Part shown: piece after piece, positions 14,171 through 33,400 of the stretch
Layout of the letters: every line of letters begins with the position of its first letter
Numbering within the stretch: the stretch's first letter is position 1
From: a virus
DNA length: 58,533 nt
Reading direction: 5' to 3' (one strand)
Virus record (IMG/VR): IMGVR_UViG_3300045988_162556
Notes under the pieces: model-generated
Told to the model about the DNA's origin: nothing
Seen by the model: only the letters and a program-made list of their open reading frames with translations
Databases searched by the model: none
Position numbers and translations under genes: made by a program

Positions 14171-15502
14171 CTATTCAAGAAGTTTTACAAGATCGGTCTT
14201 CATCTCTTCGTCTATGTCCCTATAGCGGGCAAATGCCTTACTGCCTTCAGTATGCCCAGATAGGGACCCTACAAGGTTCGGGTCCTTGACTTTCTTATAC
14301 AGGTTGCCGATAAAAGTTCGGCGAGCCATATGAGAGGAGGCTACTTGATAAAGCGGCTTCTGTTCGGGTTCACGAGTAATCGGATTGAGCACATTTACCA
14401 TCCGTTTAAGGCCCGCAGCAAGAAAGCATTTTTTAATCGCTTCATTATATTTCTGCTCTGAAATAAACGGCAACAACATCTCATGCTCGGATGATTCATA
14501 TTTTTTTATGATATCCTGAGCAATATTGTTCAGAGGTACACGCACCGTTACCGGATGCCCTTCTTTGGTTTTACGCGGAATATACTCCACAGCGCCCTTT
14601 ACTACATTATTGCGCTTCAGTCCAAGCAAATCCCCTACCCTACATCCAATCAAGCACTGAAATATAAATATATCTCGCTGGACAGCCAGCTTATGATGAC
14701 GGGATAGATTTGTATTATACAGCTTGTTCCGTTCGGCAATTGTAATGTAAATAGGCGTTCCATAGACAGCCTGCTTTATCTCTTTCTTACGGAAGGGATT
14801 GGAGGGTATAAGATCATTATTTGCGGCCCAATTTAAAAAGGCGCGCAACAAGATCATTTTGCTGGCAACAGTATTATGCCCGCGCTGCTGCGGCATTCTT
14901 GAATCCGGAACCAACGTATATATATGGGGATAATCCTCGCATATCTCGTATTCTCTGCGATAAAAGTCCTCAAAGTCATCCAGCATTTCAGGAGTGAACG
15001 TTAATAGGGAGAGTGTGAAATTTCGATCAGAAATCCTCTTATATAATTCGTAACGCTTAAGTACTCGTATAAGCACGTTAAATGCCATTATGCGACGCTC
15101 GGAAAAGTTCTTTTTCGAGATATAGCTTTCGAAACAAGCCCATATATCCTTATCCTGCGACATACCCACCGAGTAGGGTGTAATAACATCACGGAGCCAA
15201 CTCACAGGCAACCCCATCTTCCCCGCCCCGCCATCGATAAAAGACTGCATGACAAAAGAGGTTAATGCCGATAATTTAGCATGGGCCTCATTTGCTTGTT
15301 CGACAATATCCTGCCGGGCTGGCGACATCATCCTATAGCGGGGAATCAAGATTGATTGCGTCTTCTCGTTCCAATATTCAGGCAGAACATATATGCCGGT
15401 CTTGGCACGTTGGTTGAAACGTCCATGAGTAAACCGAATCAGCACCTCGTGTAAACCGCATGAATTTTCCTTAGCCGAGAGGGAGTAGTAGATTGTCGCC
15501 AT
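14171..15502 (-). CDS. int: Tyrosine integrase (Bacteroidota phage/CTn type)
   Basis: 443 aa. The C-terminal catalytic region reads SSHMARRTF...GHTEGSKAFARYRDI (H-x-x-R, H, Y), with a long N-terminal arm/SAM-like region. Convergent with the plus-strand cargo genes. Confidence 0.88.
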   Translation of the reverse strand: MATIYYSLSAKENSCGLHEVLIRFTHGRFNQRAKTGIYVLPEYWNEKTQSILIPRYRMMSPARQDIVEQANEAHAKLSALTSFVMQSFIDGGAGKMGLPVSWLRDVITPYSVGMSQDKDIWACFESYISKKNFSERRIMAFNVLIRVLKRYELYKRISDRNFTLSLLTFTPEMLDDFEDFYRREYEICEDYPHIYTLVPDSRMPQQRGHNTVASKMILLRAFLNWAANNDLIPSNPFRKKEIKQAVYGTPIYITIAERNKLYNTNLSRHHKLAVQRDIFIFQCLIGCRVGDLLGLKRNNVVKGAVEYIPRKTKEGHPVTVRVPLNNIAQDIIKKYESSEHEMLLPFISEQKYNEAIKKCFLAAGLKRMVNVLNPITREPEQKPLYQVASSHMARRTFIGNLYKKVKDPNLVGSLSGHTEGSKAFARYRDIDEEMKTDLVKLLE

Positions 15503-23573: not shown

Positions 23574-24521
23574 CTAATACTCCACAGCCGCCCGACGGTC
23601 GATGAAGAAATGAATACCCGGTGCGCATTCATTCCAACGGCAATCGTCAAAATTAGGGACCTCGACGGTAGCGCCGACCGTATACACGAAGTTGTTGTCA
23701 TGGTTCGAATGAATTGCCTCGATGTCGGCTTTGGTTCCATCGGCATTCTGAATCTCCGCCACATAGGCTTTGTCGCAACGACATTTTTCACCTCCGGCAG
23801 AACTTCGGCGGGCGTCTTCCGGAATTTGTAGCTTCACGACATAGCCCGAAGCCTTCTTCCAGCCGATAAAACTGCCATCGGTAGGACAAGCCATATATGC
23901 GCCTTTGGCTTCGCACAGGTCGGCTCCGCACAGGTTGGCTCTGCGCAGGTTGGCTTCGTACAGGTCGGCTCCGCGCAGGTTGGCTCTGCACAGGTCGGCT
24001 CCGCACAGGTCGGCTCCGCACAGGTTGGCTCCGCACAGGTCGGCTCTGCGCAGGTTGGCTCCGCACAGGTCGGCTCCGCACAGGTCGGCTCCGCACAGGT
24101 TGGCTCCGCACAGGTCGGCTCTGCGCAGGTTGGCTCTGCACAGGTCGGCTCCGCACAGGTCGGCTCCGCACAGGTTGGCTCCGCACAGGTCGGCTCTGCG
24201 CAGGTTGGCTCCGCGCAGGTTGGCTCCGCGCAGGTTGGCTCCGCACAGGTCGGCTCCGCACAGGTCGGCTCCGCACAGGTTGGCTCCGCACAGGTCGGCT
24301 CTGCGCAGGTTGGCTTCGCACAGGTCGGCTCCGCACAGGTTGGCTCTGCGCAGGTTGGCTTCGTACAGGTCGGCTCCGCACAGGTTGGCTCCGCGTAGGT
24401 TGGCTTCGCTTTTAATAGCTTCGGATACGGTCTTTTTAATTGTGTTATTTTCGGACAAATACTCGAAAAGTATATTACCTGTCCACCGATTTTTTATCTC
24501 AATTTTGATTTGCTTGCTCAT
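23574..24521 (-). CDS. Pentapeptide-repeat protein with a Cys-rich C-terminal globular domain
   Basis: By my count there are 33 uninterrupted A(D/N)L(C/R/Y)(G/R/E) pentapeptides. They are followed by a roughly 110-aa domain ([11 protein letters not shown]...[17 protein letters not shown]). Confidence 0.8.
23910..24404. repeat. Near-perfect 15-nt periodic tandem array encoding the pentapeptide repeats
   Basis: Units such as GCACAGGTCGGCTCC and GCGCAGGTTGGCTCT are iterated without interruption. No stop codons occur in four frames, which generates the shadow ORFs. Confidence 0.9.
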
Positions 24522-28987: not shown

Positions 28988-29148
28988 ATCACGTTCCTCC
29001 CTCTCATACGATTGTATGATATGTAATTCCAGAGGCTGATCCTGCGTATGACACGTCGCCGGATTCTGTACTGCATGCGCCATACTATGGCGGTGAGCAA
29101 CTGCTTATCGGTGCGTCTTACGCCGACAAGCTGAATATCATTGTCCAT
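28984..29148 (-). CDS. Small basic protein (54 aa, below the track cutoff)
   Basis: Hand translation gives MDNDIQLVGVRRTDKQLLTAIVWRMQYRIRRRVIRRISLWNYISYNRMRGRNVI. Confidence 0.35.
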   Translation of the reverse strand: MDNDIQLVGVRRTDKQLLTAIVWRMQYRIRRRVIRRISLWNYISYNRMRGRNVI

Positions 29149-29159
29149 GATTCAGCGGT

Positions 29160-29426
29160 TTAATGTTTAGACTTGGAGGGGAATACCCGGCTTACGAGTA
29201 TGGTGCCGACAACGACAGCATACGCGGGATAGAGCACGCGAAACTGAGCAAGGAAACAGCCTAAAGCATGCTCCTCGCACGTGGCGCGGATAACGTTGGT
29301 GTAATCGACTTTATCCGAAGAGAACATCGGACGATTGGCTTTTAGATGACACCTGTAAAAGCAGGTGCGATGCGTTGCACGGGTACTTTTATTCCCCGTT
29401 TTGCAACTCGTGTTGTGGTTTGGCAT
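29160..29426 (-). CDS. Small basic protein, paralog A (MPN...FYRCHLKANRPMF, hydrophobic C-terminus)
   Basis: The 13-codon block F Y R C H L K A N (K/R) P (L/M) F is shared with 29431..29769. Differences are almost all synonymous (cgt/agg Arg, tgc/tgt, ctc/cta, aag/aaa, aac/aat, ccc/ccg). Confidence 0.6.
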   Translation of the reverse strand: MPNHNTSCKTGNKSTRATHRTCFYRCHLKANRPMFSSDKVDYTNVIRATCEEHALGCFLAQFRVLYPAYAVVVGTILVSRVFPSKSKH

Positions 29427-29430
29427 TTGG

Positions 29431-29769
29431 TTAACACAAGTTCGTTGAACAATATGTAAAAAGAAGGACGCGTCCTCCAGTTAGTCGCCAAACCACCACG
29501 ACTGCGGGTGCAGAAGTGAACCGAGAACACGCCCTAAAAAGCGTTTTGTATTTTTCTGATATACCCGAAATCGGGTGGCTTGGCAATACAAATTTACACA
29601 AAGTTTTTAACTCTGCAAATAATATTGCCGATTTTTGAATTTTGCCCCAGATGAATAGGGGTTTGTTGGCCTTGAGATGGCAACGGTAGAATGCAGTGCG
29701 GCTTTTCTTTGCGCGCGGTGTGGTCTGGGTGTTATTTACCCGGATACCACTTTCAGAGGCGTTTGGCAT
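29431..29769 (-). CDS. Small basic protein, paralog B (conserved N-terminal ~41 aa; the 3' extent overlaps promoter and leader 1 and is uncertain)
   Basis: MPN...TAFYRCHLKANKPLF. The ORF stays open through 29619..29456, which also carries the promoter, leader and terminator signals. Confidence 0.5.
   Translation of the reverse strand: MPNASESGIRVNNTQTTPRAKKSRTAFYRCHLKANKPLFIWGKIQKSAILFAELKTLCKFVLPSHPISGISEKYKTLFRACSRFTSAPAVVVVWRLTGGRVLLFTYCSTNLC
29456..29584 (-). ncRNA. Structured leader / sRNA candidate 1 (closing stem, three inner hairpins, intrinsic terminator)
   Basis: Minus strand: GCCAAGCCACC (29574..29584) pairs with GGTGGTTTGGC (29487..29497). Inner hairpins are CCCG-ATTT-CGGG, ACGC-N8-GCGT and CTGC-ACCC-GCAG. 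The terminator is GGAGGAC-GC-GTCCTTC followed by TTTTT. Confidence 0.5.
29589..29619 (-). promoter_or_regulatory. Bacteroides-type promoter driving leader 1
   Basis: Minus strand TTTG (29616..29619), 19-nt spacer, TAAATTTG (29589..29596). Confidence 0.65.
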
Positions 29770-29791
29770 GGCCTGAAAGTTTTATTAGTTA

Positions 29792-29924
29792 GTAAAAAAG
29801 AAGGCGAGCCTTCCCTGTTATCGTCGCCAAACGCCTGCCATTCGTGAGAATGACACCACAAGAAAGACCCGCTTTATCGCGAAGTTTCAGTATGTATCTT
29901 GCTGTCGAATGACAAGCGTTTGGC
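29792..29924 (-). ncRNA. Structured leader / sRNA candidate 2 (same architecture as candidate 1)
   Basis: Minus strand: GCCAAACGC (29916..29924) pairs with GCGTTTGGC (29826..29834). Inner hairpins are TTGTC-ATTC-GACAG, TTCGC-GATAAA-GCGGG and TGTCATTC-TCAC-GAATGGCA. The terminator is GAAGGC-TC-GCCTTC followed by TTTTTT. Confidence 0.5.
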
Positions 29925-29928
29925 TCTA

Positions 29929-29959
29929 CAAATATAGGAAATCATTTCGAATCTGCAAA
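29929..29959 (-). promoter_or_regulatory. Bacteroides-type promoter driving leader 2
   Basis: Minus strand TTTG (29956..29959), 19-nt spacer, TATATTTG (29929..29936). Confidence 0.65.
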
Positions 29960-29960
29960 A

Positions 29961-30200
29961 TTATTCGACTTTTTGGAAAAAAATATCTACACCATCAGAA
30001 CGTACATCTTTAGAACAGGCAAAAGGAGATATATTCCCACACATTTTACTTCCGCATATTGAACGATCTCCACACGGTCTGCATGTTCCGCTTTTGGTCA
30101 AACTTTTAATTAGACATCCGCCACACGCCCTGCCTCGTACTACAATTGCGTCAATCCCAAGTATTTTCAGTTGGGTGCCGACAGGTAATTCTATATCCAT
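29961..30200 (-). CDS. Small Cys-rich hypothetical protein
   Basis: 79 aa with 9 Cys (RACGGCLIKS...CRPCGDRSICGSKMCGN...FAC). Confidence 0.45.
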   Translation of the reverse strand: MDIELPVGTQLKILGIDAIVVRGRACGGCLIKSLTKSGTCRPCGDRSICGSKMCGNISPFACSKDVRSDGVDIFFQKVE

Positions 30201-30222
30201 TTTAAATCTGCAAAAAAAAGTT

Positions 30223-30275
30223 AGAATTCTTTACATTTCGAGCGTACATGTAAAGAAAATCGAGAATTCTTTACA
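30223..30275. promoter_or_regulatory. Operator-like repeats: AGAATTCTTTACA x2 (40 bp apart) with an inverted TGTAAAGAA between them
   Basis: Exact 13-mers at 30223..30235 and 30263..30275, with an inverted 9-mer at 30249..30257, all in a 78-nt intergenic gap. Confidence 0.5.
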
Positions 30276-30277
30276 CG

Positions 30278-30679
30278 TTATTCGTGGATAGGGTGCCAAC
30301 CGACAATCTCGAAACGTGGGTGGGAGGTTGCTAATTCATTCTCGCAGCTCCACACCCCAGAAGGTTCGCGTCTACCTACCGTATAATACGGCTCATTGGG
30401 GCGCCCTACCGCTATATACTTCACAAGCACATTGCCCTTAGGCATATCTTTTACGAATGGATTGTTCCATTGGGTCAGTTCTTCCCGTTGTAATATTAAC
30501 TGACAAATAGCCGACTCATATATGTCCTTAATCACGTCTTTATATTCCGAGACACGACATTGCGGTTCTTCCGGTTCACTATTAAGACGCCATGCGCATG
30601 TTTTGCATACAGGCGTGTGGGATTGATTACAAAAAGTATTTGTGCAAATACGCTTTGCTCGCTCTTCGATGGTTGTCAT
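30278..30679 (-). CDS. Paralog 2 of the DUF551-like family
   Basis: MTTIEERAKRIC...LTQWNNPF...FEIVGWHPIHE. Confidence 0.55.
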   Translation of the reverse strand: MTTIEERAKRICTNTFCNQSHTPVCKTCAWRLNSEPEEPQCRVSEYKDVIKDIYESAICQLILQREELTQWNNPFVKDMPKGNVLVKYIAVGRPNEPYYTVGRREPSGVWSCENELATSHPRFEIVGWHPIHE

Positions 30680-31216: not shown

Positions 31217-32263
31217 TTAGAATAATGTCTCGGAATAATGTTTGATAATTGAAATCATCGTAGTTTTTATACCGGTTCCGCTTTCTTTGAAAGCCCCCTC
31301 TTTCACGTCCAAGACCTCGGCACCTACATTTTGTAGCCATTCCCGGAACTCAGCGCATTTTTTTTCAGAGCCAATTTTCCAATGAGAACTACATATAACG
31401 GCCATCCGCCCTCCCGTACGAAGTAGTTCATACATTTTCATAGTATGATCTACGTCTTGATTATTGCTAAACGGAGGATTTGCAATTATAAGCGAATACG
31501 TATCATGGCACTCTGTGATGAAATTCTCGCCTTTTATCCTAACGCCCGATATTCCATGAAGAATTTCTCTGTTCTCGGGCATAAGTTCGTAACAGTCAAC
31601 AATGACCGATGGGCAGCTGCGATGGATAGCTTTTACCAAAGCTCCGCGGCCTGCACTCGGTTCCAGCACGTCGTCCGTATCTCGAATACCTCCAACCAAC
31701 GATACCAATAAATCGGCTACTTCCGCCGGAGTTTCAAAAAATTGAAACTCCTGTGCTAAATTACAGCGGCCTGTCGTATGCAATTGATTAAATACGCGGT
31801 TGGCGTCAAATGGGAATCTGAAAGCCTGTATTTTCCCTCCTACCCACTCGCCGCCAGCCTCTTCTATGCGCTTTTTAGCCTCCGCATATGATTGTTTATT
31901 GAACTGTGTCGGTGGCAATTTAAGCATATTGTCCTTCAAGGTGCAGTGCTTAAGTATTTCATCCGCGCTCCACTTTGCGCCTGTATCCTCTTTTGAGGCC
32001 TTTCCCGCGGGTTGCTCGTCGATACCCAACATATTCTGCAAAGCCTTCATGGCGTTGTTTTCTATAGTCATAAGATCGGACATGAACTCTAAAAGAGCCA
32101 TCATGAAATCACAATCTACATGCCCTGTATCGTCATATATGTCGCGGTCTTTAAGAAGCGCGGGAATCTCGGACAGCGGTTTAATGCTACCATGTAACGC
32201 TTTTATTAAAGTCTCGTTTCTGCTCTGCATAGCTCCTTTGTAGATAAATTCTTGTCGTCTCAA
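31217..32263 (-). CDS. N6-adenine DNA methyltransferase (gamma-class order) with an uncharacterised N-terminal domain
   Basis: DVLEPSAGRGALV (motif I) precedes LIIANPPFS (NPPF, motif IV). The start is uncertain: the ORF overlaps the recombinase stop, and alternative Mets lie at 32230 and 32104. Confidence 0.75.
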   Translation of the reverse strand: MRRQEFIYKGAMQSRNETLIKALHGSIKPLSEIPALLKDRDIYDDTGHVDCDFMMALLEFMSDLMTIENNAMKALQNMLGIDEQPAGKASKEDTGAKWSADEILKHCTLKDNMLKLPPTQFNKQSYAEAKKRIEEAGGEWVGGKIQAFRFPFDANRVFNQLHTTGRCNLAQEFQFFETPAEVADLLVSLVGGIRDTDDVLEPSAGRGALVKAIHRSCPSVIVDCYELMPENREILHGISGVRIKGENFITECHDTYSLIIANPPFSNNQDVDHTMKMYELLRTGGRMAVICSSHWKIGSEKKCAEFREWLQNVGAEVLDVKEGAFKESGTGIKTTMISIIKHYSETLF

Positions 32264-33302
32264 TACTTCCGTGTCCCAGGATGTCCGCCAATTGGACTAT
32301 ATCGTTTTTCTTTTTTAGAAACATCTTTGCAAAAAGGTGCCGAAATGCGTGTGGGTGCATCTTATCTGATGAAATACCACATTCGGCACCCCATTTTTGC
32401 AAACATTCCCGCAACCATCTATTGCTGTACTGACGGCCTTGCGAATTACTGTATACAGGATATGATCTATTCTCTATTCCCACGTATTCCGCAACACGAG
32501 ATGATACATCTTTCGGGAAAAAGATACGGCGATATTTGTTGCCCTTGCTATTTATCAAGACCTCGCCGTTAATCACGTCTTGCCACGTCAATTTGGCAAA
32601 CTCCGACTGTCGCACCCCTGATGTCGCCAAGATGCGAACCCACCAATAATATTTCTTATCTTGAAAATTGAGCAAATAATCCAACATCTTTTGATACTCC
32701 GATTCAGTAGGGATGTTATCAAGGGCCAATGATTTCTGAATTTTGGGCCTGCGAATCTCTATCGGTTTCTTAATATAATTCCCGAATTGCTCAAGAGCCG
32801 TAATGCGTAATCTTATAGTCGACGGCTTCTGGCCCTCGTCGCTTAAAGTTTGGATGAACCTCCGGACGTTCTCCGCATTATATTCGGAGGCATATTTGAA
32901 GAAAGAAGATATACCAAATCGGTATGTCGCTATTGTATTGGGAGAATAGTCCTTCACTGTAGTTATATGCTCCAAGAAATTAGCTAATAATTCCTTGTTC
33001 TTCTCCGATACCTTATCCAATTTCTCCAGTGGCTTGGACGGTCGGGCTGTCGTCTTATATCCGATGCCGAACGTTGCGAGGAAATCACATATTGACTCGG
33101 ACATTATGCTTATATGCTGCCACCCAACGTCGGCAATATGGGATTTGCGATACTTAAGATACCCCCGCCGATTAATAGTATCGGCTTGTTCAAGGAATGA
33201 CGCAACGTGCATTATGTACATTCCACATTTTCGGTACGACATCCCGCGATTATACAGCCCCGATATATATTCGGACAGCATAGCTTGACGTGTTGCTTCC
33301 AT
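32187..33302 (-). CDS. Second tyrosine recombinase (XerC/D-like)
   Basis: SGVRQSEFAKLTWQDV...HPHAFRHLFAKMFL...LGHGSIETTRIYLQRS gives the R, H-x-x-R, H and Y catalytic residues. Confidence 0.85.
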   Translation of the reverse strand: MEATRQAMLSEYISGLYNRGMSYRKCGMYIMHVASFLEQADTINRRGYLKYRKSHIADVGWQHISIMSESICDFLATFGIGYKTTARPSKPLEKLDKVSEKNKELLANFLEHITTVKDYSPNTIATYRFGISSFFKYASEYNAENVRRFIQTLSDEGQKPSTIRLRITALEQFGNYIKKPIEIRRPKIQKSLALDNIPTESEYQKMLDYLLNFQDKKYYWWVRILATSGVRQSEFAKLTWQDVINGEVLINSKGNKYRRIFFPKDVSSRVAEYVGIENRSYPVYSNSQGRQYSNRWLRECLQKWGAECGISSDKMHPHAFRHLFAKMFLKKKNDIVQLADILGHGSIETTRIYLQRSYAEQKRDFNKSVTW

Positions 33303-33328
33303 AATGAAAATTTTTCATTTTTTTTGAG

Positions 33329-33400
33329 TTGAGCCACCCGGATTCGAACCGGAAGCGCCACCTCCAAAGGGTGATGTGTTAACCATTACACCATAGCTCA
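33329..33400 (-). tRNA. tRNA-Gln (anticodon UUG)
   Basis: Hand-folded cloverleaf: acceptor UGAGCUA/UGGCUCA with the U1-A72 pair, D-arm GUGU-AAUGGUUA-ACAC, anticodon arm UCACC-CUUUGGA-GGUGG, and T-arm UCCGG-UUCGAAU-CCGGG. No CCA is encoded. Confidence 0.9.

Follow-up and report, generated by a model that had tools for sequence, protein, structure and literature searches.

In phages P1 and P7, the c4 RNA of the immI operon (icd-ant) is a same-strand antisense RNA, encoded upstream, that acts against the translation start of the next gene, and its specificity variants carry compensatory changes in their targets. In phage P4, according to the passages of PMC4825925 that deal with it, the CI RNA system (seqA, seqB and seqC) uses a leader RNA element complementary to both an upstream and a downstream site, and premature termination gates the replication genes. 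The same paper describes IsrK of Gifsy-1, in which one promoter and a leaky intrinsic terminator give rise to a short small RNA (sRNA) and a long mRNA, and leader pairing decides translation of the first open reading frame (ORF) ahead of lytic-type genes. A further layout, as treated in the relevant sections of PMC7547250 and PMC11394854, is that of the lambdoid PR'-tR' unit (6S RNA/StxS) and of Rli51, where a constitutive-looking promoter followed by an immediate terminator yields a short RNA as the by-product of an antitermination unit. Here we describe a pair of RNA cassettes that lie in tandem on the minus strand, at 29959-29160, of the IMG/VR record IMGVR_UViG_3300045988_162556, the whole 58,533-nucleotide (nt) stretch of which (hereafter, the window) is the genome of a temperate phage whose host genus is Alistipes, a prophage that is very common in the gut.

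The leader RNA of these cassettes is an undescribed regulatory RNA, and a real and widespread phage riboregulator. It is ~100 nt long and closed by an 11-bp stem between a 5' arm, A, and a partner arm, A', ~90 nt downstream. The sequence of arm A equals the first bases of the following ORF, counted from the G of its ATG, and A' is complementary to both, being exactly Watson-Crick complementary to the G of the AUG and the next 9-11 nt. We consider it probable that the cassettes are cis-regulatory attenuators, one arm of which is directed at the start codon, and hold with greater confidence that each is a structured regulatory leader; spelled out, the reading that we favour, if with reserve, is a multi-state attenuator and translational switch in the ~230-nt leader of a temperate Alistipes phage, placed before a small-protein gene. 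An earlier sequence-only reading of this region had missed that A' is antisense to the start codon, and had likewise missed the antiterminator, the hairpin around the AUG and a further hairpin, H5, in codons 7-19. The features of the two cassettes are the following.

29929-29959, minus strand: cassette 2 promoter, with the -33 TTTG at 29956-29959, the -7 element TATATTTG at 29929-29936 and a conserved TTCGAAATGA in the spacer.
29874-29945, minus strand: candidate upstream ORF (uORF) of 23 codons, hypothetical, with its ATG in the promoter spacer, crossing arm A and stopping in the H2 loop.
29911-29924, minus strand: cassette 2 5' arm A, GCCAAACGCTTGTC, with the core address at 29914-29924; the probable 5' end of the RNA.
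29861-29883, minus strand: cassette 2 apical hairpin H2 (29868-29883) and segment 2, GCGGGTCTTTCT (29861-29872), the antiterminator 5' strand.
29826-29855, minus strand: cassette 2 hairpin H3 (29836-29855) and 3' arm A', GGCAGGCGTTTGGC (29826-29839, core 29826-29836), which pairs with A or with the start region.
29794-29816, minus strand: cassette 2 terminator, with stem AGGGAAGG / CCTTCTTT, loop CTCG and a U-tract; segment 3, the antiterminator 3' strand, is at 29804-29815.
29720-29779, minus strand: cassette 2 start region, a hairpin of CTTTCAG (29773-29779) with CTGAAAG (29750-29756), the ATG at 29767-29769, the address GCCAAACGCCT (29757-29767) in the loop, and H5 at 29720-29750.
29431-29769, minus strand: ORF B, 112 amino acids (aa), of which about the first 42 codons (to ~29645) are homologous to ORF A; the rest crosses promoter 1 and leader 1.
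29589-29619, minus strand: cassette 1 promoter, of a variant class, with the -33 TTTG at 29616-29619 and the -7 element TAAATTTG at 29589-29596.
29571-29584, minus strand: cassette 1 5' arm A, GCCAAGCCACCCGA, core 29574-29584, with one G.U pair to A'.
29521-29544, minus strand: cassette 1 apical hairpin H2 (29529-29544) and segment 2, GCGTGTTCTCGG (29521-29532).
29487-29518, minus strand: cassette 1 H3 (29497-29518) and 3' arm A', CGTGGTGGTTTGGC (29487-29500, core 29487-29497).
29458-29479, minus strand: cassette 1 terminator, with its stem at 29463-29478 and a T-run at 29458-29462; segment 3 is at 29468-29479.
29374-29440, minus strand: cassette 1 start region, a hairpin of CTTGTGTT (29433-29440) with AACACGAG (29407-29414), the ATG at 29424-29426, the address GCCAAACCAC (29415-29424) in the loop, and H5 at 29374-29407.
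29160-29426, minus strand: ORF A, 88 aa, a full-length family member with a predicted disordered basic N-terminus followed by beta-beta-alpha-beta.

Relatives of the module were collected with three IMG/VR pattern scans, which together gave ~100 loci, and nhmmer found 108 complete copies; these occupy 99 loci, of which nine hold two copies each. None of the 108 nhmmer matches was a partial or orphan cassette, and free-standing sRNA genes that would appear as such copies were dropped as a candidate. After removal of duplicates the distinct modules number 21-28, depending on the stretch compared, and among them we counted at least 16 address types, in which A, A' and the start region change together (GCCAAACCAC, GCCAAACGCC, GCGACAGAAC, GCTACAGAAC, GCAGACCGAT and others). 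The three-way relation was also recovered blindly: when 1.98 Mb were searched for an ATG plus 10-mer whose reverse complement lies 35-100 nt upstream of it, with a sequence able to pair with that complement still farther upstream, 74 matches were returned, 73 of which lie in cassettes, where by our own estimate ~0.3 would be expected by chance. Outside the viral contigs, 185,579 species genomes yielded a single match, in an Alistipes metagenome-assembled genome (MAG), and BLASTN of the region against 50,697 GenBank phage records gave no match. With Rfam 15, the whole window at the gathering threshold returned tRNA-Gln only and the stretch 29100-30300 at E<=10 a single spurious 14-bit match; in five further loci the module drew no match at E<=1. 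An Rfam scan and a homologue search were among the checks that the sequence-only reading had put forward; no Rfam family, with C4 antisense RNA, IsrK and the Bacteroidales motifs counted in, matches the module, and its homologues maintain the stems by covariation. A literature search found no paper describing the element, and the FopS sRNA family of Bacteroides was rejected as an identification, being tied to polysaccharide utilization loci and unrelated.

The proposed pairing of the leader's 5' and 3' ends is borne out in both copies. In copy 1, GCCAAGCCACC pairs with GGTGGTTTGGC over 11 bp with one G.U, and in copy 2, GCCAAACGC pairs with GCGTTTGGC in a pairing that extends further than first drawn, as part of a 31-nt imperfect inverted repeat (29826-29856 / 29894-29924). 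A repeat search independently returned the arms of the copy 2 rod, as well as inverted repeats between each 3' arm and the next ORF start. Compared with shuffled sequences, the two RNAs fold with z = -6.5 and -5.05, and at minimum energy each forms a long, imperfect rod capped by an apical hairpin rather than the cloverleaf of three enclosed hairpins that had been suggested; all three hairpins nevertheless exist as local alternatives, and H3 is robust in all homologues, always present in the 3' strand with energies of -6.6 to -12.9 kcal/mol. Of the distinct leaders, 26/26 keep the closing stem in register over 11 bp, and in some it reaches 12-22 bp. Universal RNase III processing of the rod was dropped as a candidate, the stem having just 11-14 bp in many types.

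Outside these helices few positions are invariant, and leader identity between address types is 66%. This bears on the possibility that a conserved pocket in the leader senses a ligand or a protein and thereby sets the choice between terminator and antiterminator. A P1-like closing stem followed by an expression platform with both of these elements would suit such an aptamer, and the short motifs ACAUA (5' strand) and CACUUC (3' strand) recur in many types; yet a 19-sequence alignment holds only scattered invariant columns, the interiors vary in length and sequence between types, and no Rfam family matches. A metabolite pocket would not tolerate such variation, while a protein site might. We regard a sensing leader as improbable, and the riboswitch that the sequence-only reading had entertained finds no support. 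The motif ACAUA(U) occurs both in the leader 5' strand and in the spacer just past the terminator U-tract of many types, though not all (29890-29900 and 29450-29457 in the window), and could serve for protein binding or as a standby site. We also considered that the leader might be under diversifying selection, which is not demonstrable, with an identity of 0.66 in the leader versus 0.72 in the neighbouring coding sequence (CDS).

Compensatory change, which had been claimed from the window alone, is weak on its two copies by themselves and very strong across 21 distinct homologues. For these counts, columns set by sequence anchors (the invariant GC in A, the GC with which A' ends, the ATG, an invariant CG in the apical hairpin and another in the terminator loop, and the spacer's CTT) replaced RNAalifold on a MAFFT whole-leader alignment, where the rod was misaligned, and the pieces were joined by fixed linkers, such that the columns were defined without pair optimisation. 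The results were as follows.

Whole structure, 21 distinct modules: 91% of cells paired (69% when shuffled, 37-50% when slid), with 39/49 pairs changed on both sides.
A:A' (14 columns): 95% paired, 12/14 with double changes, G.U pairs present.
A':start (10 bp): 99% paired, 8/10 with double changes, one G.U in 210 cells.
Segment 2:terminator 5' half and loop (10 bp): 100% paired, 6/10 with double changes, terminator-loop nucleotides included.
AUG hairpin (8 bp): 98.8% paired, 6/8 with double changes, the AUG and the address in the loop.

The covariation score was 0.644, compared with 0.218 for shuffled and ~0.11 for slid controls, and 0/500 shuffles attained the observed values. Formal covariation counts thus back four helices, while H3 and H5 are backed by RNAalifold and folding; two of the helices are mutually exclusive with others.

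The same data speak to readings at the level of DNA, in which the repeats would be an attC-like site, the target duplication of a mobile hairpin, an invertible segment or an RNA-primed origin. The attC consensus boxes R'' and R' are RYYYAAC and GTTRRRY at the ends of an imperfect palindrome, and GCCAAAC...GTTTGGC resembles such integron attC R boxes. The direct repeats (A and the start region) do flank an inverted copy, and structured-RNA origins occur in other prophages (PMC7157519), which we counted in favour of this reading. The AAC/GTT box, however, is not conserved, the palindrome ends varying freely after the GC (GCGACAG, GCAGACC, GCTACAG), and a target duplication fails to explain a matching inverted copy in 16 types. 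The stem has the promoter precisely at its 5' end and a terminator at its 3' end, the start codon itself is the target, and G.U pairs occur in the sense orientation only, which points to RNA. A DNA-level feature is in our view extremely unlikely; we rejected the integron attC site on the freely varying ends, and target-site duplication, inversion and an RNA-primed origin along with the DNA-level reading as a whole.

At the start of the ORF, the AUG lies in the loop of a covarying hairpin, and the A':start duplex has a mean energy of -23.7 kcal/mol between cognate partners versus -13.9 kcal/mol between non-cognate ones. Since the address covers the first codons, residues 2-6 of the protein family are hypervariable. 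Further on, all 16 distinct sequences form H5, a two-tier hairpin from ATG+19 to +55 that spans codons 7-19 and carries an A-rich loop of roughly AAnAAnAGUA, and because of its position the RNA module extends ~55 nt into the ORF. The H5 stretch encodes unrelated peptides in a predicted disordered N-terminus, and selection on the 5' coding region appears to act at the RNA level rather than at the protein level.

An intrinsic terminator before each ATG had been proposed from sequence, and a stem with a U-tract is indeed found in both copies, ending 31 nt (copy 1) and 24 nt (copy 2) before the ATG, with a T-run at the corresponding place in 39/42 promoter-anchored sequences (28 distinct after deduplication). 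Segment 2, which consists of the 3' half of H2 and the bases after it, pairs with segment 3, the terminator 5' half and loop, and thereby excludes the terminator. Pairing of this helix drops to 37-70% when slid, and among its paired changes GCGUG becomes GCGUUG where CAC becomes CAAC, and a change of U to A on one side is met by A to U on the other. As the terminator-loop bases covary too, the antiterminator helix is not a by-product of the terminator hairpin. RNAalifold predicted the helix unprompted, and the leader 3' half, folded by itself, gives a consensus of antiterminator and H3 in which A' stays single-stranded. The attenuator option of the sequence-only reading is thus strengthened, a terminator-excluding helix being kept by compensatory changes; with a predicted promoter-proximal terminator and a conserved alternative helix, the cassette has, as judged from its sequence, two of the defining parts of an attenuator. 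Separately, a terminator scan flags H2 of cassette 2 (29868-29883) together with the following UCUUUCUUGU as terminator-like, and this hairpin might be a pause site before the termination decision.

Opening A' costs a mean of 16 kcal/mol (11-22) as long as the terminated RNA is intact and ~3 kcal/mol once the 5' strand is taken away, and opening the target in the loop of the start-codon hairpin costs ~1.2 kcal/mol. The net A':target interaction is on average ~+1.2 kcal/mol when A' is masked (range -4.8 to +7.6), such that mask and target are nearly balanced, and -6.6 to -13.8 kcal/mol when it is unmasked.

Combining these results, we chart a model for the cassette as a cis-acting attenuator. 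In the default state suggested by the energies, the RNA would start at arm A, A would pair with A' in the 11-bp in-register stem, and the intrinsic terminator would form, releasing a ~125-135-nt hairpin RNA with a masked anti-start-codon seed. The free-standing sRNA offered by the sequence-only reading is in this respect half right only: the terminated leader is thermodynamically favoured. In the alternative state, whose helix is backed by covariation, a freed 3' strand would let segment 2 take the terminator 5' half and loop over 10-14 bp; with the antiterminator formed, no terminator would arise and transcription would read through. A second output, its pairing likewise backed by covariation, would come from unmasked A', which can occlude the start codon of the first ORF, the target being presented in the hairpin loop. 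Arm A would then be an anti-antiterminator and an anti-anti-start element at once and, with A:A' masking and A':start occlusion nearly iso-energetic, a modest input on arm A may flip the switch. Candidates for this input are ribosomes crossing A on transcripts that enter from upstream (in a uORF, or in a read-through ORF such as ORF B), 5' processing, or a phage protein. The ~11-nt address would be free to vary if all three copies change together.

The promoters bear on where such transcripts may begin. The Bacteroidetes sigma-A consensus consists of a -33 TTTG and a -7 TAnnTTTG ~19 nt apart. As the sequence-only reading had noticed, TTTG-N19-TAnnTTTG matches exactly at 29929-29959 and 29589-29619 (minus strand), and we found it nowhere else in the window (0.25 expected by chance); by this motif match both are predicted promoters of the consensus type, and in each cassette the stem begins four or five bases past the promoter. 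The cassette 2-type promoter recurs in about 96 viral contigs. In 35/35 main-class sequences its spacer contains a conserved ATG (CGAAATGA, 29943-29945 in the window), which opens a 12-23-codon ORF across arm A with a stop at varying positions, and which would occur only on transcripts entering from upstream. The upstream gene stops 15-18 nt before this ATG in 22/35 main-class sequences; in the window, the upstream 79-aa ORF has its TAA stop at 29961-29963, and the TTTGCAGATTYRAAATG string of the spacer also serves this real 79-aa gene as its start region, at 30200 (30200-30214). That a ribosome-translated uORF or upstream frame is the trigger we offer as a speculative and rather doubtful idea. 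In the variant promoter class, a long ORF from upstream of the promoter crosses the cassette end to end in 4/4 cases (the window and the second cassettes of L041, L090 and L099), which may be due to chance (~0.3 each, by our own estimate) or to translation-coupled unmasking and reinitiation. A leader peptide within the RNA was rejected: one or two additional pairs with the A' flank account for the UUG or AUG that directly precedes arm A, and several types lack it.

Two further observations concern the promoter sequences. The TTCGAA core of the TTCGAAATGA spacer is palindromic and present also in the second promoter class (L090 and L099), and this palindrome could alternatively be an operator. 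The promoter region of cassette 1 (AACTTTGTGTAAATTTGTATTGCC, 29589-29619) resembles its own spacer and start region (AACTTGTGTTAACCAAATGCC, 29427-29445), a likeness which suggests that the 5' arm and promoter of cassette 1 may derive from a duplication of the start region.

Several points weigh against the attenuator model. The compared sequences come from related phages, such that shuffle controls overstate independence, a problem of which slid controls are free; the A' columns were anchored by 4 nt of complementarity; and two of the 21 rows (L090b and L099b) came from the three-way scan itself. With the 5' strand in place, the combination of rod and terminator is favoured over the antiterminator state by 7-20 kcal/mol, so that termination is the default state and read-through needs an active input. 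A uORF would not be a universal source of that input, as 10/35 main-class sequences are without an upstream ORF ending nearby, some of them with a terminator there. We infer the transcription start sites, termination and read-through alike. The sign of the switch is awkward too: release of A from A' would permit read-through, yet it would also free A' to block the first ORF. Finally, the A':start pairing could act in trans instead of in cis.

This last point leads to a possible alternative, to which we give appreciably less credence, namely a trans-acting immunity or incompatibility RNA as in P4 (CI RNA) or P1 (c4). The terminated leader would accumulate in the lysogen, perhaps minus its 5' strand, its A' seed would base-pair on cognate transcripts with both their start region and their arm A, whether these are its own or those of a superinfecting relative, the replication/recombination block would be shut off, and the address types would define heteroimmune groups. 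The layout, in which a single element is complementary to two sites of one transcript, the first upstream and the second downstream of it, is P4-like as far as P4 is set out in the pertinent passages of PMC4825925. The presence of 16 address types on otherwise similar, recombining flanks fits this picture, as do the strictly Watson-Crick, seed-like A':start pairing next to an A:A' pairing that tolerates G.U, and a target in an open loop that costs 1.2 kcal/mol to open. A 3' fragment would moreover show classic sRNA anatomy (hairpin, single-stranded seed, terminator), the addresses of the two cassettes differ in 6/6 two-cassette loci, and the upstream cassette is retained though its ORF is a remnant. 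Set against this, A' is masked in the intact terminated RNA by 11-22 kcal/mol and its net interaction with the target is about zero, such that processing would be needed; beyond a single chance 9-mer (position 818), the address has no other target in the window; in divergence the leader does not clearly exceed the CDS next to it (0.66 versus 0.72 identity); and cross-reaction is predicted between the two cassettes of the window (-22.2 versus -24.9 kcal/mol). Taken to its fullest form, which we advance tentatively, the element would be an addressable RNA immunity or insulation device of gut Bacteroidales phages: a self-masked antisense RNA, transcribed locally, whose 11-nt address sets orthogonal specificity groups, unmasked by processing or when transcripts that enter from upstream are translated, and gating, for each phage type, both the replication/recombination block and translation of the first gene. 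If true, P4/P1 RNA immunity would have its counterpart in Bacteroidota, equipped with its own terminator/antiterminator and with a mask in cis.

Activation in trans of the IsrK type would reverse the roles of the two isoforms: the read-through RNA would be inactive with A' on its start region, and the short terminated isoform would open it. The architecture is alike, one promoter and a leaky terminator giving a short sRNA and a long mRNA (PMC4825925), and arm A, as a copy of the start-region sequence, could compete for A'. Yet the cis arm A of the long isoform should outcompete any trans copy, and A is itself paired in the short isoform, making this in our opinion very unlikely.

Returning to the attenuator model, the genes that the cassettes precede belong to one family. 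Both ORFs start with MPN and have in common the FYRCHLKAN(K/R)P(L/M)F block that the sequence-only reading pointed out, and its view that the block differs mostly by synonymous changes holds over 13 codons (4 identical, 7 synonymous, 2 non-synonymous). ORF A has 38 homologues in a family of 88-92 aa, and the module also stands before two further subfamilies, of 101-107 aa; these are mutually homologous (E = 1e-10) and share an HPL-A-G motif with ORF A, from which it follows that the module always precedes one diverged small-protein family. Database names for the cassette protein are confined to "hypothetical protein [Alistipes putredinis]" or Caudoviricetes MAG, and one variant is present on at least 1000 contigs. 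Pfam and PHROGs gave nothing for both ORFs and the two other subfamilies, PADLOC not having been searched. An AlphaFold2 model (predicted local distance difference test, pLDDT, 72) shows a disordered basic N-terminus plus beta-beta-alpha-beta, and found no significant match with Foldseek in PDB and BFVD, nor did a profile search against PDB sequences. The model has no membrane helix, and the RNA is same-strand and upstream, both of which speak against the small-protein toxin with an RNA partner that had been suggested; a type I toxin-antitoxin system was rejected, as the modelled protein is not a small hydrophobic membrane toxin. ORF B stops (TAA) 4 nt before the ATG of ORF A, and its homology to the family ends at about codon 42, which, as regards the protein, supports the earlier suspicion that the ORF B tail is fortuitous. 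By homology, ORF B is a remnant of an ORF A-type gene that keeps its 5' ~42 codons and is fused to cassette 1, and the junction recurs in L001, L010 and L011, with four different upstream address types.

In the window the plus strand carries the structural genes of the phage, and the minus-strand block runs in the order regulator, tRNA-Gln, integrase, methyltransferase, small ORFs, cassettes, KilA-N, ERF, SSB and DnaD-like loader; the cassettes thus stand at the head of the recombination/replication genes (KilA-N / Erf / SSB / DnaD-like). Within the replication block, a 315-aa ORF (23574-24521) matches phrog_7713 in six repeated stretches (E = 2.8e-78) and is a repeat protein. In the middle of the minus-strand block, tRNA-Gln (33328-33400) adjoins a tyrosine-integrase gene (32187-33302), and a second integrase gene (14171-15502) lies 17 kb from the first. 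One to three tRNAs stand upstream of the cassette in related contigs.

Neither the RNA nor the protein has been named, although one variant of the protein is on so many contigs, and the comparative evidence is unusually rich for a phage riboregulator. To our knowledge, Bacteroidota lack Hfq and Shine-Dalgarno-based initiation, and we know of few cis-RNA switches in the phylum. The three-way address amounts to a natural programmable, and probably orthogonal, RNA switch, which could explain how replication genes are gated in these temperate phages and might be reused as a tunable expression part for Bacteroidales; the element is also a ready candidate for a new Rfam family.

Compared with the described systems, the cassette is like P4, as that phage is portrayed in the passages on which our opening account rests, in that A' pairs with both A and the start region in all modules and sits before replication genes. 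It differs in having no sequence or structure homology to P4 and no Rfam match, in having the start codon of the first ORF as its downstream site, in using the upstream site as a mask in cis, where it forms the closing stem of the terminated RNA, and in that the intrinsic terminator has its own covarying antiterminator; the hosts are Bacteroidota rather than Enterobacteria, and processing and trans action are only hypothetical here. Like the c4 RNA of P1 and P7, the leader is a same-strand, upstream antisense to a start region with compensatory variants; unlike c4, it has a 5' arm that masks the seed, comes with a terminator/antiterminator pair and has no match in Rfam, which should include the C4 family. 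IsrK activates in trans, whereas here occlusion of the start codon is predicted and the competitor arm lies in cis. The PR'-tR' unit, within what the sections cited for it report, is opened by Q-modified RNA polymerase before late genes, whereas the cassette has a leader-encoded RNA antiterminator before early, replication-type genes. The trp/pyr and erm/cat attenuators share with it the mutually exclusive rod (as anti-antiterminator), antiterminator and terminator, and possibly a leader ORF over the first segment; in contrast to them, we found no universally conserved leader peptide in the cassette, and here the same 3' arm provides an extra start-codon output and the address is hypervariable.

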